64,000 nucleotides of DNA from Gammaproteobacteria bacterium (GCA_033852075.1 JAWSVC010000014.1:113-64112), one strand, 5' to 3'. Shown: positions 7,343 to 23,570, numbered from the stretch's first letter. The notes: generated from the letters alone by a model not told the origin. Translations and numbers: made by a program.

Positions 7343-7708
7343 TTATTTACCTGTTTTTTCAGGAACATAAACCACTTCACCACTGGGTAGCTGATAGGCA
7401 ACACCCAACCGTTGACCGTTGCCACCAATCTCCTCTTCACTAATCTGGTAATGGTCAATTTTCACCCCCTGTTTGGTGATGATCTCCATATTATCCTTGC
7501 CTGGATTTTTTATAATTGTAATATCATCCTTAGATGTTAGTAATTCGGGTACGCTAAGAGCAGTAAACATCGCCAGTATTAATGCCACTGCAAAAACCAT
7601 AGCGACATCAAAAAGGTTAGCAACGGTTGCTAAAGGATCTTCGTCAACAGCTCCAAGCAATTGCTTATACCTTTGACTTTTTGAATTGGGCGTTATTCTA
7701 CCGATCAT
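7343..7708 (-). CDS. Small membrane protein, DUF2149-like (121 aa), with an ExbD/TolR-like single TM. It is the partner of the ExbB-like gene.
   Basis: TM segment DVAMVFAVALILAMF near the N-terminus. The start overlaps the upstream ExbB-like stop by 4 nt. Family assignment is from memory of the conserved ExbB-like/DUF2149/CobN-like neighbourhood. Confidence 0.5.
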   Translation of the reverse strand: MIGRITPNSKSQRYKQLLGAVDEDPLATVANLFDVAMVFAVALILAMFTALSVPELLTSKDDITIIKNPGKDNMEIITKQGVKIDHYQISEEEIGGNGQRLGVAYQLPSGEVVYVPEKTGK

Positions 7709-8394: not shown

Positions 8395-11300
8395 CTGCTA
8401 CATCCTTGATTCGCTGTTTTTTGCCCTGATGGTAGAATCCTACTGCAATCAACAATATGGCAATGATGATAACCACAATCAGAGTCAGGTGGCTCTGAAA
8501 AAAAGAGGAATACTGAACTGGTTTTTCCTGAGGCTGCTGCGCATTTTTCTTTTCCAGCTTTTTACCCTGTATCGGTTCATTAGAAGCCTTTCCAGGAGCG
8601 ATATCGGTAAGTTCAGCAGAGCGCTGTTGATATTGTTCAAGAATTTGGTTTAATTTTGGTGAATTTGGTGCAGAAAGTGTTTTATCAATAAACTGTTCCA
8701 GTTTTTCGTTTCCCCCTTCGCGTACTCCACTAGCGCGACCATGTTTGGCAACCGACTCGGCATAGGCAGCGGCAATCTCAAGACGGGTAGCTTCATCGGC
8801 CTGCCAATAACCTTTGCGTATGGTTTCCAGCATAGTTACAGCCAGTTTTTGAAATGCGTGCGGATTGGTTTTATCAAACCATTCTCTGATATCCAGATTC
8901 TGACTGTCACGCACATAAACATCGGCCACGTTATCCCAGTTGGCATCACTGAATGTCTGTTCACGCATGATTTCCCACCCCATCATGTTGTCGAGATTTT
9001 TAGCCAGGATATTGCCGCCGGCATAACCCTCTTTCATCATCGCCTTAATCCAGTTTGGATTGACCACGCGAATAAGTAAATCCTGCCTTGCAGCGGTAGT
9101 GGAATCAACCAGTTTTGCTTCGTCGGTATTGCGTACATCTACAAACAGCAGTTGCGGTTCGTTACCACTCATCTGCTTGATTGCAAGCGACAGTGTGCCA
9201 TCAACCCACCATGCAAATTTATTGGAAAGAACAAAATCGCGGTTATCGTACCAGCTACGCATAATTGTTTCGGTACCACTAAGAGCCTGGTCAAAAACTT
9301 CAGGTGCATTTTCGCCCCAGATCCCTTCGGTATATACGTGTTTATTGTATTTTAAGAACAGTTCAACAAGTTCCTCGCGACTTTCCCATTCTCCGGAACG
9401 CTCGGTCAGATAAAAAAACCAGTTGTGACTATCGATAATTTCTTCAGGTTTGGCGCCAAACATCCGTGCCTGCGAAAGCGCCAGTGCTCGCTGTTTTGCT
9501 ATACCTTCGGATTCAAGTTGTTTTCTTGTTGCTTCACTATGTTGGTAGACATAGTTATCCGGTTCTTTTTGCGATGCTGCCAGACGAATTGCGCGATCAA
9601 GCAGATGCATCATGGTTGGAAGTTCATCACGATAAACACTACGTGCCGACAAGAATACATCTATACGGGGACGCCCCAGTTCTTCGGCTGGAATCAGTTC
9701 AACATCACGCACCCGGTTCTTAGCATCCCACACCGGACGCACTCCCATCAAGTACAGTATTTGCGATTCAATAATGCCAAAATCACTATAGGTGGCAAAC
9801 GGAATCAGGCTGAACGCGATCTTCTGCGGATATTGGCCTTTGATTTCAAACTCGTCTGCCAGATGTTGATCTATTAACTTTTTCGCCAGATCCCATGATG
9901 CCTTGGATGGCAACTCTTCGGGATTGAGAATATAAAGATTGCGTCCACTTGGCACAACCGCCGGGTTACGTTCCGGACTACCTGATGGCCCCGGCAGAAT
10001 AAACCTACCCTCAAGTGCCGCAAAAACATTATCAATTTCATAATGAGTTTGCTGCAATCCGCTGTTCATCTCAACTGCCACTTCTAGTCCTTCAACAAAG
10101 GCTTCCGGCAATCCAGCAGCAGGAACTTCACCGTCACTTTGTTCCACCGCCTGAGCAAAAGTAAGGTTTTCCTGTAAAACCGATTTCAGAATCTCACGCC
10201 CTTTTTCTTTCAGGAAAAAGATATCCATCTCCTCTTCATCCTCATCATAGAGCTGCTTAAGACTGTTAAGAAAACGTTTTCCAAGACCGGAAACCAGATA
10301 AGGAACCAGTAATTCATCACTTGGAGGTTCTCCCAGAATATGCATTCCGGCCGGAACCTGTGCATTCATCAAGTCATGCAGGTGTAGTGAAAGCTGCTCA
10401 ATCTGCTCTTCCGTCATTAAATCATCCGCCCCTAAAGACAGATTTAAATCTCGATCCATACCGGTTGCAATAGTCTGTTCGGTAACTGCCCTGGCAAAGC
10501 GTTTCTTTAAAAAACCAATACCCAGTTGCTGATAACGATGAATATCTATCTCAAGATTAACCAGTTCATCCGGCAAACCTGCATCCATTAGCGGAGGAGG
10601 AATAAAGCCGATGTGCACAGCATGAGCACGCCGCTTGCTCGGCAATAATTCACTGGTATTGCTGGTCAGCCAGGGATTAATATTGGGCAGATCGCCAAGA
10701 AAAATATCACTCCAATCAGAACGCGACATAACCGCCATTTTCCCTTCATAAAGCCACTCCGAACCATGAGTACCAAAATGAACCAGAGCATCGGCATTAA
10801 AACCGTGTTGTAGCCAGAAATAGGAAGCAAGATAGTGATGCGTGGGAGGCAACAGACTTTCGCGAGTGTCCTGAACCTTCATCGAAGCGGTTAGAGTTTC
10901 ACCTTTAAGCGGCTGAGTAAATAGGATGACATTGCCTAAATCCAGTTTCGGCAAAACCAGATAGCGCTTGCCTTTATCTTCCCATACCATGATTTTTCCC
11001 GGTATCGCCCCCCACTGTTCAAGAACCTGATCCCGACGCCACTGCGGAATATATTCTTCAAACCATTGCTGGTATTGCTCCTCCGGAATAAGTACGGCAT
11101 GACCGCTACGCGCTATCCGGTCGATCTGGGCTGGCTCCCACTCTCCCATCTGTCGACCATGATCCATCATTTGAGTAACCAATTCCTCGGAACTGGATGG
11201 AGCATTATTAATCGTATATCCAGCTTTTTTCATTTCATCAAGAAACTTAATCATACTGCGTGGAGCATTCAGATTATGTGCAGGCCCGCTCATCAGACCG

Positions 11301-12472
11301 GATTTATCAGCTTCCCGGTCATAAATAACCAGTGCTATTTTTTTATTTTTATTAGATTTACGCCGCAGTTGTATCCAGCGTTTTGCGCGCCCGGCAATCC
11401 GGCGAATACGATCTGGGATTGGAATAATCTCTTCCCCGCTATCGTGACCGGTTTCGGTTCCACCAGCCGCCAGCGTTTCAGTGCCACCCTTCATCTCTGC
11501 CGATACAATTTGATGGAACTGCTGCGATTTCGACATGCCGGTCTGGTTGCTTTTGCGCCACTCATCTATTGACTCTTCGGTAAACCACATTGCATGCAGA
11601 CGTGGCACATCCAGTTTTTTCCAAAAATCCGGGCGCTCACGGGTATGTGAGTTCATAATCACCAGATCCGGTTTGAATGTTTCCAGTCGCTCTCGAAACT
11701 TTGGATCATCTGCAATAAAACTAACGGCCAGAATTTTCTGTTCGTGCAACTCATTAATGATTGCTTCTACCACACGAGGCTGATGAAACAGGACATGATG
11801 CCGCCATGTTCCCAATGCCACTCGAGGTGCATCTTGCAGATTCCACCCAGCCTTTTCAGCTTGCTGTAAAAATTGATCGACGGTTTCAAAATCACCATAT
11901 TGAGGGTGCCAGATCCTAACAACCTGTTCAGTAGGCGGAGGATTGATCTCACCCGGACGATTAAACCAGGTAATCAGCGCATAGCGTACCATCTCTTTCA
12001 TTGCTTCTCGTGACAAACCGTAATAGGACGCCATCTGTGGATCGCGCAGCATGTTCTCTGCGCCAATCCATTCCGCCCAGTTATTACATATCGGGCCAGG
12101 ACCAACACAAACCACTTTCAGCTGTGAACGTTTTTTCTTGGCGGTAACTACAGCCTGACGATATTGGTCTTTTAATTGACCTGAAGCAAATGAGGTTATT
12201 ATCAGATCAAATTTAGCCAAATCGGGCAACTTATCACGTCGAAACAGGTCAATCTTAAGTTTTGTAACTGTGACGTTCAGTTCATCCTGATAATCAGCCA
12301 TAGCATCAACCGCGCCACCTGCCATACCGATAACCCCAATGACAATTTTTTTCTCTGCCGGGGAGTTTTTTCTTTCTATCAAAGTATTATCAGCATCTGC
12401 TGCGTGCGCAATCTGAACCACATAGCTCAGCAAAAATATGGCTACTGGAATTAACCGAAAGATTATTTTCAT
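8387..12472 (-). CDS. CobN/Mg-chelatase-family large subunit homolog (1361 aa). It is exported (signal peptide) and has a C-terminal TM anchor. It resembles the HmuS type of TonB-receptor-associated (de)chelatases.
   Basis: Size is typical of CobN/ChlH. The conserved CobN motif ADALVHFGTHGSEWLYEGK is present. N-terminal signal MKIIFRLIPVAIFLLSYVVQIAHAADA. C-terminal TM LTLIVVIIIAILLIAVGFY. Confidence 0.75.
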   Translation of the reverse strand: MKIIFRLIPVAIFLLSYVVQIAHAADADNTLIERKNSPAEKKIVIGVIGMAGGAVDAMADYQDELNVTVTKLKIDLFRRDKLPDLAKFDLIITSFASGQLKDQYRQAVVTAKKKRSQLKVVCVGPGPICNNWAEWIGAENMLRDPQMASYYGLSREAMKEMVRYALITWFNRPGEINPPPTEQVVRIWHPQYGDFETVDQFLQQAEKAGWNLQDAPRVALGTWRHHVLFHQPRVVEAIINELHEQKILAVSFIADDPKFRERLETFKPDLVIMNSHTRERPDFWKKLDVPRLHAMWFTEESIDEWRKSNQTGMSKSQQFHQIVSAEMKGGTETLAAGGTETGHDSGEEIIPIPDRIRRIAGRAKRWIQLRRKSNKNKKIALVIYDREADKSGLMSGPAHNLNAPRSMIKFLDEMKKAGYTINNAPSSSEELVTQMMDHGRQMGEWEPAQIDRIARSGHAVLIPEEQYQQWFEEYIPQWRRDQVLEQWGAIPGKIMVWEDKGKRYLVLPKLDLGNVILFTQPLKGETLTASMKVQDTRESLLPPTHHYLASYFWLQHGFNADALVHFGTHGSEWLYEGKMAVMSRSDWSDIFLGDLPNINPWLTSNTSELLPSKRRAHAVHIGFIPPPLMDAGLPDELVNLEIDIHRYQQLGIGFLKKRFARAVTEQTIATGMDRDLNLSLGADDLMTEEQIEQLSLHLHDLMNAQVPAGMHILGEPPSDELLVPYLVSGLGKRFLNSLKQLYDEDEEEMDIFFLKEKGREILKSVLQENLTFAQAVEQSDGEVPAAGLPEAFVEGLEVAVEMNSGLQQTHYEIDNVFAALEGRFILPGPSGSPERNPAVVPSGRNLYILNPEELPSKASWDLAKKLIDQHLADEFEIKGQYPQKIAFSLIPFATYSDFGIIESQILYLMGVRPVWDAKNRVRDVELIPAEELGRPRIDVFLSARSVYRDELPTMMHLLDRAIRLAASQKEPDNYVYQHSEATRKQLESEGIAKQRALALSQARMFGAKPEEIIDSHNWFFYLTERSGEWESREELVELFLKYNKHVYTEGIWGENAPEVFDQALSGTETIMRSWYDNRDFVLSNKFAWWVDGTLSLAIKQMSGNEPQLLFVDVRNTDEAKLVDSTTAARQDLLIRVVNPNWIKAMMKEGYAGGNILAKNLDNMMGWEIMREQTFSDANWDNVADVYVRDSQNLDIREWFDKTNPHAFQKLAVTMLETIRKGYWQADEATRLEIAAAYAESVAKHGRASGVREGGNEKLEQFIDKTLSAPNSPKLNQILEQYQQRSAELTDIAPGKASNEPIQGKKLEKKNAQQPQEKPVQYSSFFQSHLTLIVVIIIAILLIAVGFYHQGKKQRIKDVADD

Positions 12473-12497
12473 CAGATCCCTTTATGTCACGATTAGA

Positions 12498-14525
12498 TTA
12501 AAGTTTGAAACTAATTGAACTATTAACCAATAACCCTGGCGCCTCTGCCGGAACCGGAGGTACACTGTAGATGTCATAGTTATCATCAAGCAGGTTTTCA
12601 AAACTTAGTGTCCAGGATGATGATGAATTAATATCACCGGAAAATGCTAAATCCAGAGAAATATACTCATCCCTGACTCCTGCCTCATCGTTATCATAAT
12701 CATCATAACGGTCACCTTCATAACGGGCATTCAAATCAATAACTATCCAATCAAACGCCTGAACATTGATTCCAATATTTGCCTTATGTTTTGGAACAAA
12801 CGGTAAATAATTACCAACTATGCCGCTGTCGGTATCATCTTCAGTCACAGTTGAACGATTGTAAGTATAACTTGTACGCAGCTCCCAACCAGGAACAAAT
12901 TCCCAGATTAATTCCGCATCAGTACCATACACCTTAACCCCGGTAATATTGTCAGCCTGACTTTCAAAGGCTGACAAAGTACGATATCCAATAAAATCTT
13001 CACTACGCGTATAATATGTGGCTGCCCGCACCATTAGATCTTTTGTGAAAAAGTGATCTACACCAATTTCTGTAGACCATGCCTTTTCAGGTTCAAGATT
13101 TGGATTACCGTAAAGCAAAGATGGGCCGCGCGAGAATACGGTATAAAGTTGAAATAATGTCGGCGCAGCAAATGATCTACCAATCGATGCACGCAAGGTA
13201 GTTTTTTCCCCCCAGCGATCAACCAGTGAAAGTTTTGGGTTTACTGCAGACCAGGAGCGATCTTCATACTCAATATCCACAGCCGGTCTTCCCATCCCCG
13301 GATTGGTATCGATACTTTTACCATCACTGCTCTGAGAGTAATCGATTCTAAAACCAGGTGTAAAAATCAGCTTATGGTTGGCATAGGCATAGCTCATCTC
13401 ATCCTGTGCAAACAATGAAACTAACAGCTGTTTACCTTCCGCAGTAGCATCACGATCTGCAACATAATCGTTATCCTTATTCATGTAGGTGATACTGGAA
13501 TCAAAGCCTACTGACAACAGATGATTCCTTCCTAACTCAGTATTAAGCTGGAAAAGTTGTCCATATTTTGTTGCATCATCATTTTCCGTATGATCATGAG
13601 TATCATATGTTGGTCTGGCGGAAAGAATAACCTCTCGCTGCAGCGAATTTATATACCCCAATAGAGATATATCCATGCTGTCATTAAGCCATCTTTCATA
13701 GGAAGCGGTTAACAGCGTTGTGCGATTAATCTGGTCGGTAAGTAAAATACCACGGCTATAATCTTCATTTACGTAGTTAAAACCAAGTGAGAATGAGGAA
13801 TCATCATCGATATCTACAGTATATTTACCAAGCATACTGGCATCGGAACGTTCATTTGCAACGTAATAGGGTTGCTCTTCAATAGCCTGAACATAGCCCC
13901 CGGTTTTGTATGCCTTTCCTCCAAGAACATAACCATGCTTTCCAGATTGCGCACCGCTATAAGCAGAAGTTGTAAAGGTATTTAAACTACCATAACCCAG
14001 TTTGAAAATACCGCCATTAATCTTATCAGGACTTTTGGTTATAATATTAATCACCCCTCCCATAGCGCCAGAACCATAAAGGGCTGACATTGGCCCACGC
14101 ACAATCTCGATGCGATCCACCATCTCTTTTGGAATCATTGACCAGTTAACCGATCCTCCCTGACCATCATTAAATGGTATACCATCAACCAATACCAAGG
14201 TTCTGCTTTGATCTTGAATGCCACGCAAGGTAATATCTCGCCCCGGCCCGCACTCGGCAATATGAGTTCTGGAATGGGAAACACTGGAAATACGCTTTAA
14301 ATAATCGTCAATAGTAACTTCTGCTGCCTGTTCCAAATCTTCACCAGACACCACAGTCACCATAGCCGGAGCTTCTACCCAGGCAGACTCCCTTCTGTTG
14401 GCAGTAACCACAACACCACCAATCTCGTCATATGAATCTGTTGCAAAACTAGCAGAGGGGATTGGAAGAAGAGTAATAGATGCCAGGAACAAGGCACACT
14501 TATGATTAAAAGAGAGGAAACACAT
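12498..14525 (-). CDS. TonB-dependent outer-membrane receptor (675 aa).
   Basis: Signal peptide. TonB-box-like DEIGGVVVTANR. Plug-domain motifs (RGPMSALYGSGAMGGVINIITK). C-terminal residue F (..SISFKL). Confidence 0.85.
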   Translation of the reverse strand: MCFLSFNHKCALFLASITLLPIPSASFATDSYDEIGGVVVTANRRESAWVEAPAMVTVVSGEDLEQAAEVTIDDYLKRISSVSHSRTHIAECGPGRDITLRGIQDQSRTLVLVDGIPFNDGQGGSVNWSMIPKEMVDRIEIVRGPMSALYGSGAMGGVINIITKSPDKINGGIFKLGYGSLNTFTTSAYSGAQSGKHGYVLGGKAYKTGGYVQAIEEQPYYVANERSDASMLGKYTVDIDDDSSFSLGFNYVNEDYSRGILLTDQINRTTLLTASYERWLNDSMDISLLGYINSLQREVILSARPTYDTHDHTENDDATKYGQLFQLNTELGRNHLLSVGFDSSITYMNKDNDYVADRDATAEGKQLLVSLFAQDEMSYAYANHKLIFTPGFRIDYSQSSDGKSIDTNPGMGRPAVDIEYEDRSWSAVNPKLSLVDRWGEKTTLRASIGRSFAAPTLFQLYTVFSRGPSLLYGNPNLEPEKAWSTEIGVDHFFTKDLMVRAATYYTRSEDFIGYRTLSAFESQADNITGVKVYGTDAELIWEFVPGWELRTSYTYNRSTVTEDDTDSGIVGNYLPFVPKHKANIGINVQAFDWIVIDLNARYEGDRYDDYDNDEAGVRDEYISLDLAFSGDINSSSSWTLSFENLLDDNYDIYSVPPVPAEAPGLLVNSSISFKL

Positions 14526-14612: not shown

Positions 14613-16223
14613 TTACATATCGTTAGATTTGATCGGATAATCAACCCATATATGACTTATTCCAAAGGCCCTTACAATAAAATAAATCAGTATTATCCCA
14701 ACCGTTATAATTATCGGCCAATTTGGAAATCTAGCCCATAAAGTAGGGCGATATGACCGCAAATTGATTACCCCTTTAATGATTGATTTGCTTTCGATAT
14801 CTGATTTTTTTACTACCCGCGCATTATCGATAATGGCTGCAACTCCGTAACCGGTTGATCGAATTGCCGGCAAGCCATATTCGGCACTTCTAAGAATAAG
14901 CATATCGAGCTGTTGCTCGGATTCGGAGCTATTACCAAACCATGCATCGTTAGATATATTTACAATCAGACTGCTTTGTTGCGAGATAATATCGTGTGAT
15001 AGTTTTGGCATACCAATTTCATAACAGATCATTGTAGCCAGTGAAATATCCCTACCTATATCCCGAAAGGTAATCGGCAGAGCATTCTCACCTTTATGGT
15101 AAAACTGGCTCTGTTGATATCCACCCAATGAAAATAATGCATATTTACGCTCAGCAAATGGCAATAGAAAATTTTTATCATAACGTCCTGCTGCTTCACC
15201 ATCCGGTGAATATAAAAATGCGGAATTATATATCCTTCTGCTCTCCCCCTTTCCGATAAAAGCAGGGGAACCGGTAAGAAGCCATGCCCCTGTCTTTTGG
15301 GTTATCTCCCTAATTACTTTTTTTGCTAATACAGAATTCTCTACGCCAGAAGTTATAGCGGTTTCCGGCCAAATGATAAGACGGGTATTCTCCGAATCAC
15401 CATCATCAAATGCCAGCAATGACATCTGCCGATAAATAGCCAATGTCTGTTGGTTAAATTCACTATTCCAACGCTGCTTTTGATTGATAACAGGATGAAT
15501 CAATGCAATTTCAATTTCATTTCCGCTTGATCCCTTATTATTAGGCAAGCTCATTACCCCAATCACGAATGTAAGAATGATTATAAAAAATGCCACAGTT
15601 GCCGCTTTAAAAAAGATAGGAATATTCTTAATGCCCCAAAAAAAGATCAGGCAACATAAAATAACTACAAAATGCAATCCAACACCACCGATGTATCCAG
15701 CAAGACCGTGCAAACCGGGAATATTTACAAGAGCAGCAGGGAAAAAACCCCAGCTATTTTCAGGGGAAATATTAATTCTTAACCATTCTATGGTTGTAAA
15801 TATTGATGCAGTTAATGCCGAAAAAAACACAGCTATTATGATGTTTTTCGTATTCACCAATAATGTAATTGGGTATTTGGCAATCTTTACCACCAACCCC
15901 ATCCAGATACCATGAGGAACTACTACCACCGATAAAAATAATAACCACGCAAGTAGCAAATAAAGCTGATAATGATTAGTCAGGGTTTCCAACAACCAAA
16001 AACTAATGGTTATTGCTTTTGTACAACCATAAATAAAACCGCAAATAAATGGATATTTAGATCTCTCTACCGCATAGAAAAAGATTAAAAATGCCGGAAT
16101 AACAATAATAAAACAATGGTATGGAGCAAAAACTAACCGCATAGCTATACCAGAAATCACACACAGCATCAGATAGTTCATTTCCCGGTGTCTTGTTTTT
16201 ATATCAATTAATTTTTGTAACAT
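14613..16223 (-). CDS. lnt: Apolipoprotein N-acyltransferase (Lnt) paralog. It has a polytopic N-terminal domain, a CN-hydrolase domain and a C-terminal TM. The start codon is uncertain (alternatives 16277, 16223 or 16181).
   Basis: Lnt catalytic-triad motifs are present: IWPETA, RYDKNFLLPFAE (E. coli YDKHHLVPFGEF) and MICYEI (E. coli ICYEI). N-terminal match LVFAPYHCF to Lnt LAFSPYDVW. The gene sits in an accessory island rather than the usual ybeX-lnt context. Confidence 0.75.
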   Translation of the reverse strand: MLQKLIDIKTRHREMNYLMLCVISGIAMRLVFAPYHCFIIVIPAFLIFFYAVERSKYPFICGFIYGCTKAITISFWLLETLTNHYQLYLLLAWLLFLSVVVVPHGIWMGLVVKIAKYPITLLVNTKNIIIAVFFSALTASIFTTIEWLRINISPENSWGFFPAALVNIPGLHGLAGYIGGVGLHFVVILCCLIFFWGIKNIPIFFKAATVAFFIIILTFVIGVMSLPNNKGSSGNEIEIALIHPVINQKQRWNSEFNQQTLAIYRQMSLLAFDDGDSENTRLIIWPETAITSGVENSVLAKKVIREITQKTGAWLLTGSPAFIGKGESRRIYNSAFLYSPDGEAAGRYDKNFLLPFAERKYALFSLGGYQQSQFYHKGENALPITFRDIGRDISLATMICYEIGMPKLSHDIISQQSSLIVNISNDAWFGNSSESEQQLDMLILRSAEYGLPAIRSTGYGVAAIIDNARVVKKSDIESKSIIKGVINLRSYRPTLWARFPNWPIIITVGIILIYFIVRAFGISHIWVDYPIKSNDM

Positions 16224-16290
16224 ATGATTAATAATGTAGATGTAACATGTCGGTAAATTTACATTCAGCAGACACATTCAGAAAATAAAT

Positions 16291-16527
16291 ATGCCTAAAG
16301 GAAAGATCCTAAAATACAAGAGCGGTTATAATCCTAACTCCAGCTCGATTGGTACCAACCTTACGCCATTATTAATTGGCGGAGCCGTTATATCATTATG
16401 CATTCCAATTATTTCAATTTTTGTAGCACGCAGAATCAAAAGAAAGAATAAGGCATCTGTTGATATTGATTCTAGTAATAATGATTCTGATAATATTGAA
16501 ACTGAAGATTTAACCGAGAAAGAATAA
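16291..16527 (+). CDS. Hypothetical small membrane protein (78 aa) with one TM and an acidic tail. It is divergent from the lnt paralog. Coding status is uncertain.
   Basis: ORF with TM LTPLLIGGAVISLCIPIISIFVA followed by RRIKRKNK. There is no convincing SD sequence. Confidence 0.25.
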   Translation: MPKGKILKYKSGYNPNSSSIGTNLTPLLIGGAVISLCIPIISIFVARRIKRKNKASVDIDSSNNDSDNIETEDLTEKE

Positions 16528-16552
16528 TCAATAATCTTATTTGCAACAAAAA

Positions 16553-17737
16553 CTACAAATACCCACGAACTACAAACGGGCATTCCGGATCAGGATCTGA
16601 TAACGAACCACTAACAAAACGGCTTACGGCATGACATCCACCTTTGCAGATATTTAGATAATTGCATTTGCTACAGATCGTATCATTACAATCATCCCAG
16701 TTTCTGAATGCAGAAAAGGTATCTGTTTTATTCCAGTTCTCAGCTAGTTGTTCGAGCGGCACATTTTCATTCTCAATAAAGCTACAAGGAGAAGCCAAAC
16801 CATTGGCATTAACTCCTATCAGCCAATTTCCTGCATCACATCCCATAATTGCGAAGTATTCCAGAATTTCACGAGGAGGATTATGAAAACAAATAAATGG
16901 AGTAAATGAGCAATCAAGTTTAAGACTTACCCGATATTTTCTAGCCAGCTTTTTTAACCTGGGATAAAGGTCAATAACCTGCTCGGGTTCTAACTTCATT
17001 TGATCGTAGATATCTTTACCACGCCCTGATGGTTTAAAGCGTAAGAATTCTATATCAACTATCTTTCTCTTTTTGGCATAGGCAATTATTGCCTCTAACG
17101 ATTCATAGTTTTTCCGAGAAATAACACAGTTGATACCAACCCTGATATCGTTTTGTTGCAGCAGTCCAATAGCTTGGTCGGCAAGCTGAAAATGCTCTTC
17201 CGGCCTGCTGGTTTCCAGTTTATTATCGACGCTATCCAGACTTACATTTACCTGTCCAAATACCCTACATTTTTCTGCCAACTCAGGAGTTATAAGATGG
17301 CCGTTTGTTGTTACGTTTGGAACAATATTGTATTGCCGAAAACATTCAGCAAGTTCAAAAAACCACGGAATGGAAAAGGACTCGCCGCCCCCCAGTGCAA
17401 CATGAAATATCTTCATTTCGGCAAGTTTATTGGCAACCGAAATGGCTTTTTGCAGATCTTCTTCTTTATCGTTTAGTTTTTCAATATCATTGCTGGAAGC
17501 CATGTAGCAACCGCTGCAACCTAGAGAGCAATAATCGGTAATGGCATAATGCGCCTCTATCGGCCCGGATAGTATTCCGTTATCTGGTTGATTCCATATA
17601 TCATCATCTTTGCGGCTTAATTCTTTAATATAATTTTTATCCACGAAGGTCAGTGCCGGAGGATTATTGGTGGCAATTATTCCGCCAAATGTTTCGTAAC
17701 GAAGAAGAAAGTCGTCTTGCATTATATTGTTCACCAA
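16553..17737 (-). CDS. Radical SAM enzyme with a C-terminal SPASM domain (394 aa). It is a probable peptide/cofactor-modifying maturase.
   Basis: CX3CX2C motif (CSLGCSGCYM) at about residue 70. C-terminal auxiliary-cluster cysteines (CDAGNW...SPCSF...CSKCNYLNICKGGCHAVS). Confidence 0.8.
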   Translation of the reverse strand: MVNNIMQDDFLLRYETFGGIIATNNPPALTFVDKNYIKELSRKDDDIWNQPDNGILSGPIEAHYAITDYCSLGCSGCYMASSNDIEKLNDKEEDLQKAISVANKLAEMKIFHVALGGGESFSIPWFFELAECFRQYNIVPNVTTNGHLITPELAEKCRVFGQVNVSLDSVDNKLETSRPEEHFQLADQAIGLLQQNDIRVGINCVISRKNYESLEAIIAYAKKRKIVDIEFLRFKPSGRGKDIYDQMKLEPEQVIDLYPRLKKLARKYRVSLKLDCSFTPFICFHNPPREILEYFAIMGCDAGNWLIGVNANGLASPCSFIENENVPLEQLAENWNKTDTFSAFRNWDDCNDTICSKCNYLNICKGGCHAVSRFVSGSLSDPDPECPFVVRGYL

Positions 17738-17771
17738 CTATTCATAGGCGCATTGCCGTCCAAAATAAGTT

Positions 17772-18809
17772 TTACGGCAGATATACCTGCCCCTGAGTCC
17801 CAATTTGAGATAACCGAAGATTAATATCCCAACGGACTTTAGCCCCTTTCATAAAGCCTGCCTGGTAAGTACCGCTGCCGCTTAATTTAGCAGAGGTAAG
17901 TACATTATCTTCAATTCTGGCAGTTACAGTGCCGTTTAGACTATGGAGCTTTATCTTCTGGTTTTTTTCATCAATATCTTCGCGTTTTGCGATATTCCAG
18001 GTAGCTGTATCTCCTGTTTCACTTACCAACTCAAGATCTATTACCGGCTCAATATCTCTGATTATCTCAACCCATTTTTTTCTAACCAGCGGCTCTCCGT
18101 GTGCTTTATCCAGCATCTCATTAACTAAAGCTAACTTGTCATTTTGGAATTGGTTTCCACTGGAATCGTAATATTCAGTTTCACCATCTACAAAATAATA
18201 ATCTCCGTTATAGATTGGCGCAGAAAAAACCTCTTGTTTACTGTTACTTTTACTTGTCTGATATAGCGCAAAATCGCCTTCATCATCCTTTAATAATTTG
18301 AATTTGCTTTTTACGATATAGCTTTCCCCGTCGAAATTATCGCGTCGATTGGTAAAGCTTGGCACCTCAAGTTCCATCTCCCCCGTATAGGCAAAGGAAG
18401 GGAAAAATATCATAAGATTTTTCACCGGCATGGCAAATTGCCGCAATTTTGAAACTGTTTCAAGCCGTTGCGGATCTTTGAAAAGGGACTCCTCCGGATC
18501 ATCGACTACCACGCTGGCAATCGTAATATTCTTTAACTTTGGATCGATTTTACTATCCTGGGAATACTGACTTTGCGCAATAGATTTATTGCCTGCATCC
18601 TTGTCTACTGAATGAGTGGTTTCAGTAATCTGCGGTTTGGGTTGCGACTCACTAATTTGTTTATCAGCTCGCATTACAGAATGCGCAATAGAACCAGATT
18701 TATTTTCTACTTGATTTGCTTCAGCTCTACCCCAATCTTTTGCAATATATAAAAACAGTGCAATAAAACATACCAGCGCAGAAACAACTGCAACTATCCT
18801 GTTCTTCAT
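17772..18809 (-). CDS. Hypothetical exported/membrane-anchored protein (345 aa).
   Basis: N-terminal hydrophobic anchor MKNRIVAVVSALVCFIALFLYIA. No recognisable motifs. Its start overlaps the stop of the upstream gene by 4 nt. Confidence 0.5.
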   Translation of the reverse strand: MKNRIVAVVSALVCFIALFLYIAKDWGRAEANQVENKSGSIAHSVMRADKQISESQPKPQITETTHSVDKDAGNKSIAQSQYSQDSKIDPKLKNITIASVVVDDPEESLFKDPQRLETVSKLRQFAMPVKNLMIFFPSFAYTGEMELEVPSFTNRRDNFDGESYIVKSKFKLLKDDEGDFALYQTSKSNSKQEVFSAPIYNGDYYFVDGETEYYDSSGNQFQNDKLALVNEMLDKAHGEPLVRKKWVEIIRDIEPVIDLELVSETGDTATWNIAKREDIDEKNQKIKLHSLNGTVTARIEDNVLTSAKLSGSGTYQAGFMKGAKVRWDINLRLSQIGTQGQVYLP

Positions 18810-20011
18810 ATAAAGAGCCTTTCGATATAAGTCATCAAACCCAATGAATAAAACAATATATATGTGATACTTAAATGTAATACCATCAAAGATGGAAGAT
18901 AAAACTTCATCTTTATTTCCAATCTTGAATCAAGCTCCATAATCAGACCGTTAGCAACAATAAAGAACAAAGTAACTACCATAATCAATATCATTAACCA
19001 AGGTTCCATTCCTGTCATATTGTTATGTTTTGCATCGGTTAGATAGAATATTACAACCGGCAATATTATTGCTGCGGGAATAAATAACATCGAATGAAAT
19101 AATCCGGTTTTCAGCCCGGAGGCAAGATTAATTTTTTTTATTGGAATAACCTTGTATATCGCGACTAAAGCACCAACCAAAGCTATGAGTGCAATTATAA
19201 ATCCTTTATAACGATTAGAATTAATATTAGCGCGCATCATATCATTTCCAATAAGCCTGCTGGCAAACCCACCTCCCTGTTGTTTAACCAAATTGTAGTA
19301 ACTTTGCGCCTTTCCGAAATTTTTTAATAAATAGTGGCAATCACCTATATTTTTCAAAACTACTACTTTGTGCGGCGAATTTGGATATTCATCTAATATC
19401 CGGTTATAGATTGGTATGGCTTTTCTTATGCTGGAAAATTCCTCTTCATTTTGTGGAATTCTTTGACGCCCCCGATATTCATTTGCCAACCAGAATAAGG
19501 CATCATCTAAAGCCTTATAGTCTGGATAATCCTTCACAAATCTTTCCAGCCTTTGGATAAATACCGCATTTTCTCCGGGACGATAGCTGTTGAGAATAGT
19601 TTGAAACTCTTTATAAGTTACAAGATTTATATCCTTATACCTTTTCAAGGCATTAATTCTTATTTCTGCCCTACGGGAATGCCTTCCATTATATATTTCT
19701 ATATATTCCTGATAGATCTCTAACGCCTCAGATGGTAAAAAAAGTTTTTCGTCGAGTATTACCGCCTTTTTAAAAAGCGATTCTTCTGCATACAACTGAT
19801 CGCCATATTTCGCATAAATCTCTTCATATGCACTTATTGCAACCTGATAGTTATTATAATTTTCATATGACTGAGCTTTTTTAAAAAGCATACGGGCTTC
19901 ATTTTGCCGGTCATCTGTTGTTGATTGTTGCTGTGCGTATAAAGAAAATGAGTAACAAAAACTTATTATAACTAATAAGGTATAAATAAGGGGTCGATGC
20001 ATTGGTTTCAT
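18806..20011 (-). CDS. Membrane protein with an N-terminal signal, a TPR-like periplasmic region and four C-terminal TM helices (401 aa).
   Basis: Signal MKPMHRPLIYTLLVIISFCYSFSLYAQ. TPR-like helical repeats. Four C-terminal hydrophobic helices. Confidence 0.5.
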   Translation of the reverse strand: MKPMHRPLIYTLLVIISFCYSFSLYAQQQSTTDDRQNEARMLFKKAQSYENYNNYQVAISAYEEIYAKYGDQLYAEESLFKKAVILDEKLFLPSEALEIYQEYIEIYNGRHSRRAEIRINALKRYKDINLVTYKEFQTILNSYRPGENAVFIQRLERFVKDYPDYKALDDALFWLANEYRGRQRIPQNEEEFSSIRKAIPIYNRILDEYPNSPHKVVVLKNIGDCHYLLKNFGKAQSYYNLVKQQGGGFASRLIGNDMMRANINSNRYKGFIIALIALVGALVAIYKVIPIKKINLASGLKTGLFHSMLFIPAAIILPVVIFYLTDAKHNNMTGMEPWLMILIMVVTLFFIVANGLIMELDSRLEIKMKFYLPSLMVLHLSITYILFYSLGLMTYIERLFI

Positions 20012-20086: not shown

Positions 20087-21322
20087 CTAAAGAACGATAC
20101 GCTCAAGCAATGAGGATGAACTGTTTCCTTGCCCTTGTACCTTATAGGTTTCCATAACCAAAGATGAATCATTAACATCAACTATTACATAGTTCAATAC
20201 ATCTTCATATTTGTGAATTGTGGCGTTCGAAGAAATATCTTCTATCTGAATAATCGGGCTACCACCACCACCGCTTAATATGTAATGGATACCATTCATT
20301 TCCAGATGCTGATAATCATGATCGTGCCCTTCAAAAACAGCTTTTACACCATATTGTTCAAACAAAGGACGAAGATTATTTACCAGAACCGGATTATCAC
20401 CCCAGGAAGAAGCTGAATGAACAGGTACATGCAGTGAAACAAAGATATGATCTATATCAATGTCTGCTGCGGCATTTTGCAGGTCAGACTGAATAAAGTT
20501 ATATTGCGACGTTCCCGGTAACAGTAAATCATAGCTGTCATTGTTACTGGTGTATTTTCCGGTGTTTATCACCAAGATATGCACGTTGCCATAATTGTAT
20601 GAATAATAAGCAAAGTCACCGCTATTACCAGAACTCATAAGGTAACTGTCAAAATAGGTATTTCCAGTACCATTGCCATCTGAAAATTCATGATTCCCAT
20701 AAGTAGGCACAAGAGGATGATTACGTAAAAGATCCTTTTCAACATCGAAAAAGTTAATTACGTCATCCATATCTGTTCCATCAAGTGCAAAATCACCAAC
20801 ATGCAAAACAAAATCAGGAGATTTAGAGGCCATGCTCTGGCATACAGGAAGATGATCGTCATTATCACCATAAGCAGCTACAATATCCTCATACCATGCG
20901 GCTTCACGGGTATCCCCGTAAACAGCAAAACGGAAAGGAAGACGACTTCCCTTTGGAAGCGCAGTTACAAATGAGCCAACCGGACTGGTTGTTCCATCGG
21001 ACGTAACCGTATAGTAATACCGGGTATTGGTACTTAAACCGGAAAGTGTCATCTTTCTGATCTTACCGGAAGAGATCTGATGAGTAACATAATTACTCAT
21101 ATTTGAATTTAAAGAAACCTTAAGGGTTGCAGAATCAGAATTGTACGTTTCAAATGCTATTCCAACAGAATCCGATGTTAATTGCTGCAATAGCGGATAA
21201 ACACGAAATCCAGTTTCCGGGTCATCCCCCCCTGCAAATGCTGAAGATGAAATAATAAAAAAAAAGGGTAGTAAAGAATATTTTAGAAAACGATTGAGAT
21301 TTGGCATTACCTTCAACTCCAT
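20087..21322 (-). CDS. Secreted calcineurin-like metallophosphoesterase of the purple-acid-phosphatase type (411 aa).
   Basis: Signal peptide. Metallophosphatase motifs GDTRE, HVGDFALDG, GNHEF and GHDHDYQH. Confidence 0.7.
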   Translation of the reverse strand: MELKVMPNLNRFLKYSLLPFFFIISSSAFAGGDDPETGFRVYPLLQQLTSDSVGIAFETYNSDSATLKVSLNSNMSNYVTHQISSGKIRKMTLSGLSTNTRYYYTVTSDGTTSPVGSFVTALPKGSRLPFRFAVYGDTREAAWYEDIVAAYGDNDDHLPVCQSMASKSPDFVLHVGDFALDGTDMDDVINFFDVEKDLLRNHPLVPTYGNHEFSDGNGTGNTYFDSYLMSSGNSGDFAYYSYNYGNVHILVINTGKYTSNNDSYDLLLPGTSQYNFIQSDLQNAAADIDIDHIFVSLHVPVHSASSWGDNPVLVNNLRPLFEQYGVKAVFEGHDHDYQHLEMNGIHYILSGGGGSPIIQIEDISSNATIHKYEDVLNYVIVDVNDSSLVMETYKVQGQGNSSSSLLERIVL

Positions 21323-21540: not shown

Positions 21541-21728
21541 TAACCGGACATAAATGCTTTACACACCTAAAATACATCAATCCAAATATTAAGGTAATTG
21601 TGTTAACCGGATTCTTACAGCAACAATATCTTGATGAGTTGATTAAAGCCGGAGTATGTGGGTACATCTCAAAACCTTATCGAATTGAAGATCTGAGCAA
21701 AATGATTAATCATGTTATTTCTACTTAG
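21541..21728 (+). pseudogene. Orphan 3'-terminal fragment of a hybrid-HK gene homologous to the 4648-7137 gene (copy 2 of the direct repeat). It has no upstream gene body.
   Basis: Encodes only the last ~60 residues of the receiver domain. The upstream sequence is AT-rich non-coding. Differences from copy 1 are mostly synonymous or conservative. Confidence 0.7.
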
Positions 21729-22671
21729 CCGGATCGATTATTCTTATTTCATTGAGTTTTTTGCTTAGGCGTTTGATAAACTGATAATACTGTTGCTTTT
21801 GTAGTAAGGTATTATCCGATTTGATAGATTGTAATTGTGCAAGAAAACGGGATGCTTCACCTTGGGCGCGTGAGATTTGTTGGTGTTTGTAGGAGCTGGC
21901 TTCCTGTTGGATATTATTAGCGTACTCCCTGGCTTCCGGAATCGCCCGGTTTTTAAAGGCATGAGCTATATTTAGAGCCTTTTTGCGCTCCTGCCTTGCC
22001 TGGATGACATCGTCAAAATAGCGTTGCGTTTGTTTAGGTGGTGCAATTTCGCGTATCTCTACAAAGGCTATTCTTATGCCTGAATCAAACTGGTTTAGCT
22101 TTTGTTGCAGTAGTTGCTTTACCCCATCCTCTATTCTTTTTTTACCTGTGGTTAAAACATCGTCAACATTGGTTTTTGATATTAATTTCAGTACACTTGA
22201 AGCGGTAAAACCTTTTATTAGCAACTCAGTATCGCGGGTTGAAATCAGGTATTTATCCGGGCTGATGACATTGTATTTAATCAGCAGGTTGGCATTTACG
22301 ATATTGTTGTCGCCAGTAATGCAGTATGTTGTTAGGTTGGATGACTTGATGTAATTATGTGCGCGGGAGCCAAATTCCCATCCTGAACTGGCAAAGTCGT
22401 CGACTATGATAGAGCGGACGTTTTTGGAGTCGATTCTGGTAACCTGGTCAGTAGGTGTTGGTAGGGCATAATGTAAGCCGGGTTGTACATTAGGATCAAT
22501 TATTTTACCGAATCGTTGCTGTACGCCGATTTGACTTGGGTCTATGTAGTAAAATCCGGTGGCAAAATAGATAACTATCAATACACAAATTACTAGACCT
22601 GCATAATGCACCAGCTGTTTTTGTAACGATTTAAGATTTGCAGGGTTATCATTTGGGGTATTACGACTCAT
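21721..22671 (-). CDS. SPFH/band-7 protein, HflK-like (316 aa).
   Basis: N-terminal TM, then SPFH core YYIDPSQIGVQQRFGKI...GLHYALP. The C-terminal coiled coil resembles HflK. One-nt overlap (ATGA) with the upstream gene. Confidence 0.7.
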   Translation of the reverse strand: MSRNTPNDNPANLKSLQKQLVHYAGLVICVLIVIYFATGFYYIDPSQIGVQQRFGKIIDPNVQPGLHYALPTPTDQVTRIDSKNVRSIIVDDFASSGWEFGSRAHNYIKSSNLTTYCITGDNNIVNANLLIKYNVISPDKYLISTRDTELLIKGFTASSVLKLISKTNVDDVLTTGKKRIEDGVKQLLQQKLNQFDSGIRIAFVEIREIAPPKQTQRYFDDVIQARQERKKALNIAHAFKNRAIPEAREYANNIQQEASSYKHQQISRAQGEASRFLAQLQSIKSDNTLLQKQQYYQFIKRLSKKLNEIRIIDPAK

Positions 22672-23570
22672 TATTGATTACCATTTTTATTCGATTTTTC
22701 CAGGTCGTTGGTCAGGTATTTCATCAAGTCGGATTCAGTAGATAGCAATAATGTTGATTTTTCATCAAAGATCGATTCATATGCCTCTAATGAGCGGATA
22801 AATTCAAAGTAGTCCTGGTCCTGGCTATATGCCTGAGCGTATATCTTTAGTGCTTCCTTATCAGCCTCTCCCTTGATAATCAGAGATTGCTTTTCCGCAG
22901 TCGCTTTGATTTCCTGTGCCTGTCTTTTGGCTTCAGCTACAATTTTACCGGCGTCTTCTCTCCCTTCTGCGCGTATTTTTTCTGCTTCCATCTCTCGTTC
23001 TGCCTTCATGCGCTCATAAACCGATTTCATAACTACGGCAGGATAGGAGAGACGGATAATGCCAATGTGTTCGATGCTAACGCCGTATTTTGTTACGGCG
23101 CTTTGGTTTGATGTTGCTATTAGTTCTTGTTCAATCATATCTATCTTAACTTGTGACGGATCGCTGTTGATGATTTGATGGATGGAGTAATCGCTGAAAA
23201 CAATTCCAAGTTGGGAATTAATCATGTCGCTGATTTTTTGTCTGCCATTATCGATGTTTTGTAGTGATTGAAAAAATACGACAGGATCTTTGATCTTCCA
23301 GGCGATAAAACAGCTGGTTATTATTGGATTTTTATCCCCCAAAAGAAGCTGGATTGGTTGGGTATCGATCTGTTGCAGACGTTTGTCAAAACGGTTTACC
23401 TTATTTATAAAACCAGGCATCTTAAAGTGCAATCCAGGCTGGTCAATGGTGCGAACCGACTTTCCGAACTGGGTTACAATTCCCCATTCCCGCTCATCTA
23501 TTGAGAATGTTGAAGTTACTGATAAACTTGCTGTTAGCAGAATTAAGATGCTAATCACGAATAGGCGCAC
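22671..23570 (-). CDS. SPFH/band-7 protein, HflC-like (299 aa).
   Basis: The C-terminal region YERMKAEREMEAEKIRAEGRE...DYFEFIRSLEAYESIF aligns closely with E. coli HflC (YNRMRAEREAVARRHRSQGQE...DFYAFIRSLRAYENSF). Confidence 0.75.
   Translation of the reverse strand: MRLFVISILILLTASLSVTSTFSIDEREWGIVTQFGKSVRTIDQPGLHFKMPGFINKVNRFDKRLQQIDTQPIQLLLGDKNPIITSCFIAWKIKDPVVFFQSLQNIDNGRQKISDMINSQLGIVFSDYSIHQIINSDPSQVKIDMIEQELIATSNQSAVTKYGVSIEHIGIIRLSYPAVVMKSVYERMKAEREMEAEKIRAEGREDAGKIVAEAKRQAQEIKATAEKQSLIIKGEADKEALKIYAQAYSQDQDYFEFIRSLEAYESIFDEKSTLLLSTESDLMKYLTNDLEKSNKNGNQ

Follow-up and report, generated by a model that had tools for sequence, protein, structure and literature searches.

A putative envelope-associated system combining a radical SAM/SPASM enzyme, a small NPNSSS membrane protein and, in one branch, an Lnt-family acyltransferase

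MftC, PqqE, SuiB, SkfB and anSME are the described proteins with the best sequence and fold matches to a radical SAM (rSAM) enzyme encoded in the DNA analysed here, a stretch of 64,000 nucleotides referred to as the window. One of them, anSME, matures sulfatases. As in MftC/MftA, PqqE/PqqA, SuiB/SuiA, SkfB and anSME, a CxxxCxxC motif and the full SPASM cysteine set are found in the enzyme of the window. Moreover, a small motif-bearing protein is encoded beside it, as in peptide maturase systems, and the motif is invariant across phyla, as in PqqA and MftA. Unlike the MftC and PqqE systems, the enzyme scores under all curated cut-offs and has no separate PqqD/MftB-type partner. The small protein differs from peptide maturase substrates in its N-terminal, cysteine-free motif and its retained membrane helix. 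Unlike peptide maturase clusters, the locus has no conserved protease or exporter, the partners being a TPR-containing transmembrane (TPR-TM) protein and a secreted phosphoesterase.

The locus also carries a member of the apolipoprotein N-acyltransferase (Lnt) family. Like the Lnt proteins of E. coli and P. aeruginosa (5n6h, 5n6m), it has the two-domain architecture, the E/K/C triad and the SNDAWFG motif, and it exceeds the TIGR00546 cut-off. Unlike them, it belongs to a separate clade linked to the cassette described below, and no lipoprotein was seen by eye in the cluster. We know of no link between the extra Lnt copies of Actinobacteria and an rSAM or small-protein cassette. Genomes with several Lnt-family genes have a precedent in Actinobacteria such as mycobacteria and Streptomyces, and excerpts of the two sources discuss these copies in the context of lipoprotein acylation (PMC3850990, PMC4941574).

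Two further systems invite comparison. Judged by genes alone, the neighbouring genes have the composition of the Bacteroidota hmu operon, namely a TonB-dependent receptor, then a CobN-family protein, and small inner-membrane energising proteins; unlike in that operon, no HmuY hemophore was noticed by these genes, and the host does not belong to Bacteroidota. In HmuS, the heme ligands are Met-79 and His-254. The hmu operon comprises HmuY-R-S-T-U-V, of which HmuS is a CobN-like de-chelatase (PMC12583661). The phosphoesterase of the window, unlike MslH, possesses a signal peptide and a purple-acid-phosphatase-type N-domain. To our knowledge, MslH is not known as a secreted enzyme. In excerpts of its source, MslH is described as an epimerase of calcineurin-like fold whose substrate is a lasso-peptide precursor (PMC10406935); so described, it serves as a precedent for a metallophosphoesterase-fold protein acting on a ribosomal peptide.

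Layout of the locus

The genes are arranged in the window as follows.

7343-7708 (-): DUF2149-like gene; DUF2149 is annotated on the 81%-identical homologue in locus L092
7705-8394 (-): MotA/ExbB-like gene (PF01618), neighbouring unit
8387-12472 (-): CobN/HmuS-like large chelatase-family protein (PF02514, 845 bits), neighbouring unit
12498-14525 (-): TonB-dependent receptor, belonging to the adjacent hmu-like unit and not conserved with the cassette
14613-16223 (-): Lnt-family acyltransferase, transcribed away from the small gene; longest ORF up to 16277
16291-16527 (+): small membrane protein of 78 aa, motif GKILKYKSGYNPNSSSIG followed by one hydrophobic helix
16553-17737 (-): rSAM/SPASM enzyme of an unclassified family; start of gene callers, 17722
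17772-18809 (-): u345, membrane-anchored protein of 345 aa, fold unassigned, specific to the window's cassette type
18806-20011 (-): TPR-TM protein with signal peptide, TPR and C-terminal multi-TM part; start of gene callers, 20002
20087-21322 (-): secreted metallophosphoesterase (Pfam Pur_ac_phosph_N and Metallophos), a cassette member beyond the span 14613-20011

The original prediction placed an island-borne Lnt, co-operonic with the rSAM enzyme and two envelope proteins, at 14613-20011. The genes it reported there all exist, and several of its assignments are confirmed: TPR matches and C-terminal TM helices mark the signal/TPR/TM protein, u345 has no match in Pfam or NCBIfam, and the TonB receptor and CobN-like genes do lie downstream on the same strand. 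The limits are too short, as the metallophosphoesterase at 20087-21322 belongs to the cassette. Furthermore, the region does not look like an island. No integrase or flanking tRNA was seen around it in the 64-kb window, its G+C content of 0.36-0.39 lies within the 0.32-0.46 of the whole window, and it is surrounded by typical chromosomal genes (RecC, a UvrD/RecB-type helicase, a class II aaRS and aspartate kinase). The stop of the TPR-TM gene overlaps the start of u345 by 4 bp. The small gene is convergent with the rSAM gene at a distance of 25 bp and divergent from lnt at 67 bp; since this conserved opposite-strand gene separates the two, a simple shared operon is doubtful.

The conserved cassette

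The assignment of a SPASM-domain rSAM enzyme holds. Together with a PF04055 match, the cluster motif CxxxCxxC (C70/C74/C77) is invariant in 28 aligned sequences, and so are C276, C300, G313, C318, C355, C358, C364, C368 and C386 across 28 relatives, comprising all eight SPASM cysteines (pattern C-x13-G-x4-C, C-x2-C-x5-C-x3-C, final C). HMM classification leaves the enzyme in an unclassified family, under the curated cut-off of every named SPASM family (MftC, GeoRSP, NirJ1/2, AhbD/AhbC, PqqE, ScmE/F and others). The best model, MftC, gives 134.3 bits against a cut-off of 265, and PqqE gives 61.4 against 381; the tetrapyrrole models lie at 78-100 bits against 500-650 (NirJ1 99.9/650, NirJ2 93.1/500, AhbD 84.9/500). 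The family has more than 1100 relatives at about 45% identity in Planctomycetota, Desulfobacterota, Nitrospirota, Myxococcota and others, and the best match among GTDB representatives reaches 53%. The closest solved folds, SuiB (E 1e-17, TM 0.70), SkfB, PqqE and anSME, all modify peptides or proteins; as we know of no NirJ/AhbD structure in the PDB, the fold match alone cannot exclude that lineage. In the predicted model (pLDDT 89.9), three beta strands (residues 10-33) and two short helices precede the rSAM core, and no separate PqqD-like gene was seen by the rSAM gene. These strands are shorter than a full, canonical RRE domain, which counts against the main reading given below.

The 78-aa ORF in the gap between the rSAM and lnt genes had been noticed and set aside, with the statement that no obvious precursor peptide was present. 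The ORF is real and its dismissal was mistaken: the small protein represents a widespread, undescribed family and is the most conserved partner of the rSAM family. Its motif ORF, 16291-16527 (+) in the window, is present in 76 of 88 non-redundant loci, with 1 spurious match over all six frames, and lies mostly about 190 bp to about 1.7 kb upstream of the rSAM gene, adjoining that gene or the TPR-TM gene. Public gene callers also predict it. Additionally, the sense frame is open in 95 of 95 motif segments and the antisense frames in 36, 32 and 4. A profile search of 1.84 billion proteins yielded 313 cluster representatives; the 150 listed are 51-255 aa long, nearly all of them under 150 aa. Pfam and NCBIfam hold no model for the family, and a literature search on the motif gave no match.

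The near-invariant family motif reads G[KR]IL.[VI]K.G.NPNSSS.G. Conservation in 153 representatives is 100% for NPNSSS and G-2, 98% for G+7, 97% for L-7 and 94% for K-4, and a cysteine occurs within 12 residues of NPNSSS in only 2 of them. The residue preceding NPNSSS is variable (Y in 66%), Tyr being dispensable, and thus no obvious radical target stands out. Invariance of NPNSSS across phyla fits a site of recognition or reaction, and the small protein is probably a substrate or partner of the rSAM enzyme. An N-terminal motif with a retained membrane helix is unlike typical RiPP precursors and counts against the main reading. So does the charge pattern of the hydrophobic segment, whose C-flank is positive in 130 of 153 representatives; with both flanks basic, the topology is ambiguous.

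Co-occurrence was counted over the 43 loci whose flanks extend at least 6 kb in each direction. Of these, 38 contain the small protein, 35 the TPR-TM protein, 30 a phosphoesterase homologue within 10 kb of the rSAM gene, and 28 all three. Lnt lies near the rSAM gene in one of these loci of the wider family, and the pair is therefore not the defining unit that it was taken for. The cassette core consists of the rSAM enzyme, the small protein, the TPR-TM protein and the phosphoesterase, and Lnt is an add-on of one branch. The phosphoesterase of the window begins with what looks like a signal peptide, and in close relatives the phosphoesterase adjoins the rSAM gene. By hhalign (probability 97-100%), the TPR-TM protein of the window is homologous to those of the other two cassette types and to half of a longer type A protein. 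In many type A loci, the small gene and the TPR-TM gene are each present twice. The longer type A protein, of about 680 aa, joins a C-terminal half homologous to the TPR-TM protein of the window to an N-terminus with weak, faint Pur_ac_phosph_N matches, a hint that phosphoesterase-like and TPR-TM parts act together. Homologues of u345 occupy the same position in L001, L088-L090, L092 and L095-L097; no relation to accessory proteins of the other cassette types was detectable, and in its single-sequence AlphaFold model (pLDDT 36) an N-terminal helix is the sole confident part. No leader protease or exporter family was found among the recurrent neighbour clusters. Furthermore, u345, the small gene, Lnt and either the phosphoesterase or the TPR-TM protein are retained in L095 and L097 with no rSAM gene nearby, and the periplasmic parts are therefore not strictly dependent on a locally encoded rSAM enzyme.

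The Lnt-family protein and the neighbouring uptake genes

As first described, the Lnt has an intact E/K/C triad. Its reading frame, 14613-16277 (-) at its longest and 536 aa from the gene callers' start at 16223, contains PF20154 LNT_N (42.3 bits, cut-off 27.1) followed by PF00795 CN_hydrolase (75.9 bits, cut-off 23.2), and scores 195.6 bits against the TIGR00546 equivalog cut-off of 132.9. The motifs WPETA, YDKNFLLPF and ICYE, and also SNDAWFG, align to P. aeruginosa 5n6m, and E287, K350 and C400 are invariant in the clade alignment. By these sequence features it is a bona fide family member and a predicted acyltransferase. It scores only 86 bits to P. aeruginosa Lnt, and its best generic matches are deltaproteobacterial at about 27%. 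In a neighbour-joining tree without bootstrap, its clade stands apart from about 60 generic Lnts.

The claimed association of Lnt with these genes stands in its own sub-type and fails as a general partnership with the rSAM family (1 of 43 loci). Of 11 readable contexts of the clade, 10 show Lnt linked to parts of the cassette, with Lnt identity down to 30% and rearrangements included, whereas cassette parts were found near none of about 77 generic Lnt loci. Lnt is usually divergent from the small gene in this sub-type, and in L095, L097 and L176 it stays with the cassette with no rSAM gene between or beside them. L094, from a Desulfobacterales MAG, counts against the linkage, as no cassette lies within 10 kb of its clade member. 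The 10 linked contexts and the cassette-free generic loci support the view that Lnt is not a chance neighbour of the cassette. No further lnt is visible in the 64-kb window. By eye, no lipobox was found in the cassette or neighbouring exported proteins, which speaks against the proposed acylation of island-encoded lipoproteins.

The TonB, CobN, ExbB and DUF2149 genes resemble an hmu-like unit for metalloporphyrin uptake, which seems separate from the cassette and adjoins it by chance in this lineage. The best NCBIfam match of the receptor is a heme/hemoglobin receptor subfamily, under its cut-off, and the CobN-like protein is under the cut-off of every CobN and BchH equivalog model. CobN lies next to the cassette only in the window and in one close relative, L092, where it is rearranged.

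Proposed function and alternative explanations

The reading we favour, at a probability of roughly 0.55, is that the region is one instance of an undescribed but widespread envelope-associated system in which the rSAM enzyme acts on the small protein. The small protein would dock by its basic G[KR]IL.[VI]K strand on the three-stranded N-terminal element of the enzyme, analogous to the docking of leader peptides by RiPP maturases, and the enzyme would abstract a hydrogen within or beside N-P-N-S-S-S. As this motif lacks cysteine, a thioether is not expected; the reaction would instead leave a residue that is oxidised, epimerised or cross-linked by a C-C or C-O bond. The modified, membrane-held protein may then work with the TPR-TM protein and the periplasmic phosphoesterase. 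In the sub-type of the window, u345 and the divergent Lnt-family acyltransferase would be added to this core, and Lnt may acylate an amine of a component or product of the system, with a phospholipid as the source of the acyl chain. Among the three earlier readings, only that of a lipidated RiPP-like product is still compatible with the data. Adjacency of the rSAM and small genes alone is no proof of a substrate relationship, and the modification is inferred from sequence. The cytoplasmic rSAM enzyme and the periplasmic parts lie on opposite sides of the membrane, which counts against the favoured reading.

Lnt might instead be the housekeeping apolipoprotein N-acyltransferase of the lineage, with the cassette beside it by ancestry and no functional link. 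Its complete catalytic residues and equivalog score, the lack of a second lnt in the 64-kb window, the cassette-free L094 and the joint fall of Lnt and rSAM identities between loci, as vertical co-inheritance predicts, all agree with this. However, the linkage persists at 30-37% Lnt identity and survives rearrangement: u345 and the small gene have the rSAM gene between them in some loci and not in others, and Lnt directly follows the TPR gene in L176. In L006 an unrelated Lnt lies beside a cassette in another orientation. Moreover, the relatives are labelled Gammaproteobacteria, yet the similarity to P. aeruginosa Lnt is low and the best generic matches are deltaproteobacterial. We regard a purely housekeeping role as rather unlikely, though less so than the alternatives below.

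The other alternatives concern the target of the rSAM enzyme. It could be the secreted metallophosphoesterase, modified before export in an anSME-like manner, or else a small molecule or a lipid of the membrane; the small protein would then be only a membrane tether or regulator. In favour of this, the phosphoesterase ranks second or third in frequency among neighbours of the rSAM gene, the closest folds include anSME, genes related to lipids lie nearby in the sub-type (Lnt, the GDSL lipase of L092 and the AMP-binding enzyme of L095), and the small protein keeps its membrane helix with no protease or exporter partner. We nevertheless think such a target unlikely, given that the small gene is commoner (38 against 30 of 43) and usually nearer to the rSAM gene, that its motif is invariant across phyla and that L095 and L097 keep the other parts with no rSAM gene nearby. 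Tailoring of a tetrapyrrole together with the TonB receptor and CobN-like genes, also raised in the original prediction, is very improbable. Weak sub-threshold similarity to NirJ1, NirJ2 and AhbD and the adjacent CobN-like unit, rearranged in L092, are outweighed by scores far under those cut-offs and below that of MftC, by CobN adjacency in two loci only and by a CobN homologue in 0 of 80 genome loci; L088 and L090 carry other genes after Lnt, and the TonB receptors of type B are not close to that of the window.

A bolder extension of the favoured reading, offered as a tentative and rather doubtful idea, is that the cassette defines a new class of membrane-held, rSAM-modified small proteins, in which the NPNSSS-derived residue would be an anchor or cofactor of a trans-envelope complex of TPR-TM protein and metallophosphoesterase, with Lnt recruited in one branch for acylation of something other than lipoproteins. 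If this is true, the NPNSSS peptide would give rise to a new cross-linked or oxidised residue serving as a cofactor or anchor.

Gene content of the locus

In the ORF calls, closely spaced genes follow one another on the minus strand from 7.3 to 21.3 kb. ORF calls, Pfam, NCBIfam and motif alignments confirm the genes of the original prediction, in which an Lnt paralog was described as co-operonic with a radical SAM/SPASM enzyme (rSAM) and two envelope proteins. That observation is sound yet incomplete, and its interpretation is partly right. The term "island" used for the locus has been dropped, as no island hallmark is present there.

Genes of the locus, with source of assignment
20087-21322, minus: metallophosphoesterase (Pfam/NCBIfam)
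18806-20011 (public gene callers: start 20002), minus: TPR protein with C-terminal membrane helices, TPR-TM (Pfam/NCBIfam)
17772-18809, minus: u345, 345 aa, no family match
16553-17737 (public gene callers: start 17722), minus: rSAM (Pfam/NCBIfam)
16291-16527, plus: 78-aa small gene between rSAM and Lnt, called by public gene callers too
14613-16277 (public gene callers: start 16223), minus: Lnt (Pfam/NCBIfam)
12498-14525, minus: TonB-dependent receptor (Pfam/NCBIfam)
8387-12472, minus: CobN-family protein (Pfam/NCBIfam)
7705-8394, minus: MotA/ExbB-like protein (Pfam/NCBIfam)
7343-7708, minus: 121-aa DUF2149-like protein

The TPR-TM and u345 genes overlap by 4 bp. The small gene is convergent with rSAM (stop codons 25 bp apart) and divergent from Lnt (start 16223) at a distance of 67 bp; one transcript covering both rSAM and Lnt would necessarily cross it antisense. 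Scans for consensus promoters (22 sites, fewer than the 28.5 in shuffles) and for terminators (weak sites) are uninformative on operon structure. The single-sequence AlphaFold model of u345 is unusable (pLDDT 36).

On either side of the cluster with its secreted phosphoesterase lie a hybrid histidine kinase whose N-terminal domain is of the PstS phosphate-binding type (4648-7137, plus) and a PhoA-like alkaline phosphatase (25667-27376, plus), which could be a phosphate theme or coincidence. The region 21721-25347 (minus) encodes HflK-like and HflC-like proteins, preceded by a 598-aa protein in which a cation-diffusion-facilitator transporter is fused with an SPFH/Band-7 domain. A 1683-aa protein (29000-34051, plus) combines Ser/Thr kinase, AAA_16, GAF and GGDEF domains. 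A group of genes at 60028-63503 (plus) resembles part of an aryl-polyene-type lipid cluster; it encodes an AMP-binding/ApeI-dehydratase fusion, a glycosyltransferase of family 2 and a lipid A-type acyltransferase.

A four-part cassette and its small membrane protein

Metallophosphoesterases, TPR plus multi-TM proteins and proteins of about 70 aa are the recurrent neighbours of rSAM homologues, and the last form a recurrent cluster when ORFs are called and clustered in all loci. Together with rSAM they are referred to here as the cassette.

Genes near rSAM, counted in the 43 loci that extend 6 kb or more to each side of it
Small gene: 38/43
TPR-TM gene: 35/43
Phosphoesterase: 30/43
Small gene, TPR-TM and phosphoesterase together: 28/43
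Lnt: 1/43

Gene order in the three layouts
Type A (Planctomycetota and others): ~680-aa TPR-TM, unknown 275-aa protein, small gene, thioredoxin-fold protein, ~765-aa phosphoesterase, second small gene, ~425-aa TPR-TM, rSAM, ~210-aa protein
Type B (Geobacter, Nitrospirota): phosphoesterase, PEP-CTERM protein, TPR-TM, small gene, rSAM, HupE/UreJ-type proteins; often a TonB-dependent receptor
Type C (window and relatives): phosphoesterase, TPR-TM, u345, rSAM, small gene (opposite strand), Lnt

In profile-profile comparison, TPR-TM proteins proved homologous across types A, B and C, and the window's member matched the C-terminal half of the type A protein of ~680 aa (E 1e-52), which has weak Pur_ac_phosph_N matches at its N-terminus. 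The same comparison detected no mutual relation among u345 and the accessory clusters c9, c5 and short c6, and Pfam/NCBIfam scans of clusters c5, c9 and c7 gave nothing informative. Many type A loci (for example L086 2558-11814 and L004 2651-11859) hold a pair of small genes and a pair of TPR-TM paralogs, suggestive of one-to-one pairing, and a thioredoxin/AhpC-fold gene precedes their phosphoesterase. In type B (for example L083 6365-9049 and L060 13085-15505), rSAM is followed by proteins with a common secreted domain of ~200 aa, one of them fused to HupE/UreJ_2; a pentapeptide-repeat protein accompanies the PEP-CTERM protein and the frequent receptor. Additionally, the system is present in Geomesophilobacter sediminis Red875 (L029), recorded as a strain, not a MAG. 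Literature searches returned nothing on SPASM with metallophosphoesterase and TPR, nor on SPASM with calcineurin-like proteins.

All small proteins carry the pattern [KR]G[KR][IV]L.[VI]K.G.NPNSSS.G and, after it, a single hydrophobic helix, and the window member, encoded on the strand opposite to rSAM, reads MPKGKILKYKSGYNPNSSSIGTNLTPLL.... A six-frame scan located the motif in 76 of 88 non-redundant loci, with one spurious match. The earlier statement that no obvious precursor peptide is present is not supported, as the plus-strand ORF at 16291-16527 belongs to this conserved family. In most loci the gene precedes rSAM by ~190 bp to ~1.7 kb, adjoining rSAM or a TPR-TM gene. A word-index protein search gave 8 close relatives only; a profile of eight close relatives gave 313 matches (E <= 0.001) among 1.84 billion representative proteins, and the 150 matches listed measure 51-255 aa, nearly all <150. 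Across 153 sequences, comprising the motif carriers among those 150 and the eight close relatives, NPNSSS is 100% conserved, cysteine is essentially absent around it, and basic residues on both flanks of the helix leave the topology ambiguous. The Pirellulales variant is NANSGS. Scans of Pfam and NCBIfam found no model for the family, and a full-text literature search found no paper on the NPNSSS motif.

The motif frame is open in 95 of 95 segments, and the antisense frames in 36, 32 and 4. Codon-position substitution counts ([2,1,21] and [5,1,24]) cannot split the sense frame from the antisense frame with common third positions, so the reality of the gene rests on frame openness in the 95 members and on family conservation. 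An 85-aa ORF antisense to the small gene (16326-16583, minus), with third codon positions in common and open in close relatives only, is best read as a shadow ORF.

The radical SAM enzyme, the uptake genes and Lnt

The CxxxCxxC motif and the eight SPASM cysteines of rSAM do not vary among 28 aligned relatives, and no curated SPASM family claims the enzyme at NCBIfam cut-offs. The best model, mycofactocin maturase MftC, scores 134 bits against a cut-off of 265, and those of NirJ1, NirJ2 and AhbD score 78-100 bits against 500-650. Protein searches found >1100 relatives in many phyla, mostly at ~45% identity; a scan of GTDB species genomes, the window's own genome not among them, yielded 80 loci with a best match of 53%. 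The AlphaFold model from the family alignment (pLDDT 89.9) places three beta strands and two short helices before the core. Its nearest solved structures are SuiB (E 1e-17, TM 0.70), then SkfB, PqqE and anSME, whose substrates are peptides or proteins. No NirJ/AhbD structure is known in the PDB, so the fold ranking alone cannot rule out the tetrapyrrole lineage. Tetrapyrrole tailoring, as originally suggested, is rejected on the NirJ/AhbD scores, far under the cut-offs, and on the absence of a CobN homologue from all 80 genome loci. One homologue, from a Desulfobacterales MAG, has an annotated RRXRR-domain extension of 120 aa at its N-terminus, which may be a gene-call fusion.

The TonB-dependent receptor, CobN/HmuS-like, MotA/ExbB-like and DUF2149-like genes (7343-14525, minus) resemble the hmu heme-uptake operon, here outside Bacteroidota; in that operon the CobN-like HmuS takes iron out of heme (PMC12583661). 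The same unit of four genes lies upstream of the cassette in the related locus L092, not downstream as in the window, and other genes follow Lnt in L088 and L090. The hmu-like genes are treated as a separate unit adjoining the cassette in this lineage. A different TonB-dependent receptor occurs in 11 of 81 loci, mostly type B, which also carry HupE/UreJ proteins; the cassette may therefore be loosely linked to metal or nutrient uptake.

Lnt clears the TIGR00546 equivalog cut-off (195.6 vs 132.9 bits) and keeps WPETA, YDKNFLLPF, ICYE and SNDAWFG in alignment to Pseudomonas aeruginosa Lnt. A search gave about a dozen cluster representatives at 249-793 bits, all others scoring <=166 bits at ~27% identity. 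The high-scoring sequences and three locus-derived ones form one clade apart from ~60 generic Lnts in a neighbour-joining tree without support values.

Contexts of clade Lnts
Window, L088, L090, L092, L096: full type C order, Lnt divergent from small gene
L089: type C order, Lnt beginning at contig end
L095, L097: TPR-TM, u345, small gene, Lnt; no rSAM between
L176: phosphoesterase, 680-aa TPR protein and Lnt, all co-directional; small-gene motif absent
L177: small gene and Lnt divergent, at contig start
L094: no cassette within 10 kb

Cassette parts are absent from all ~77 generic Lnt loci from metagenomes. Because of these contexts and the cassette-free generic loci, Lnt is regarded as a tightly linked, lineage-restricted addition to the cassette, tied most closely to the small gene and envelope proteins, not to rSAM. 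The proposed rSAM-Lnt pairing is supported insofar as the clade is linked to the cassette, but not as the unit that defines the system, given the single co-occurrence among 43 loci and the rSAM-free order of L095 and L097. In L006, an unrelated Lnt adjoins the cassette in a different orientation. Further lipid-handling genes come after the cassette Lnt in two relatives: one for an AMP-binding (acyl-activating) enzyme in L095 (5114-8717) and one for a GDSL lipase in L092 (10001-12242). Dedicated acylation of lipoproteins, another early suggestion, is rejected, as no lipobox was seen by eye in the exported proteins of the cassette and its neighbours. A literature search found nothing relevant on Lnt with radical SAM.

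Proposed mechanism and its meaning

Gene content, conservation and fold class are shown; beyond these, we infer a mechanism. In the most economical reading, the small protein would be recognised by rSAM through its basic strand and modified in its NPNSSS segment. Still held in the membrane, the modified protein would afterwards work together with the TPR-TM protein and the secreted phosphoesterase, and in type C, Lnt may put an acyl chain on some amine in the system. Against modification of the small protein by rSAM stand the N-terminal position of the core motif, the retained membrane helix with its ambiguous basic flanks, the lack of an accompanying protease or exporter in these loci, and the fact that no residue stands out as radical target. 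Of the two main rival readings, one has the phosphoesterase or a lipid as the target of rSAM and the small protein as its tether; it is improbable. The other, rather unlikely, is that Lnt is a mere housekeeping copy kept by synteny. Proteins 56-90% identical to the window's carry the label Gammaproteobacteria, yet Lnt reaches no more than 86 bits against Lnt of P. aeruginosa, which favours a specialised copy.

The main interest lies in the small protein family and the four-part system, and less in the rSAM-Lnt pair. This large family is spread over many phyla, its motif is unusually rigid, and neither Pfam nor NCBIfam nor the literature searched describes it. Radical SAM/SPASM enzymes with small conserved peptides have repeatedly yielded new cofactors and natural products, including PQQ, mycofactocin, streptide and darobactin. 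Here the partners (a membrane TPR protein, a secreted phosphoesterase and, in some loci, Lnt) suggest a role in the envelope and not a diffusible antibiotic. If Geomesophilobacter sediminis Red875 can be obtained, the hypothesis would be directly testable. Furthermore, if Lnt acts on a non-lipoprotein substrate, this would widen the scope of a family usually treated as single-function.
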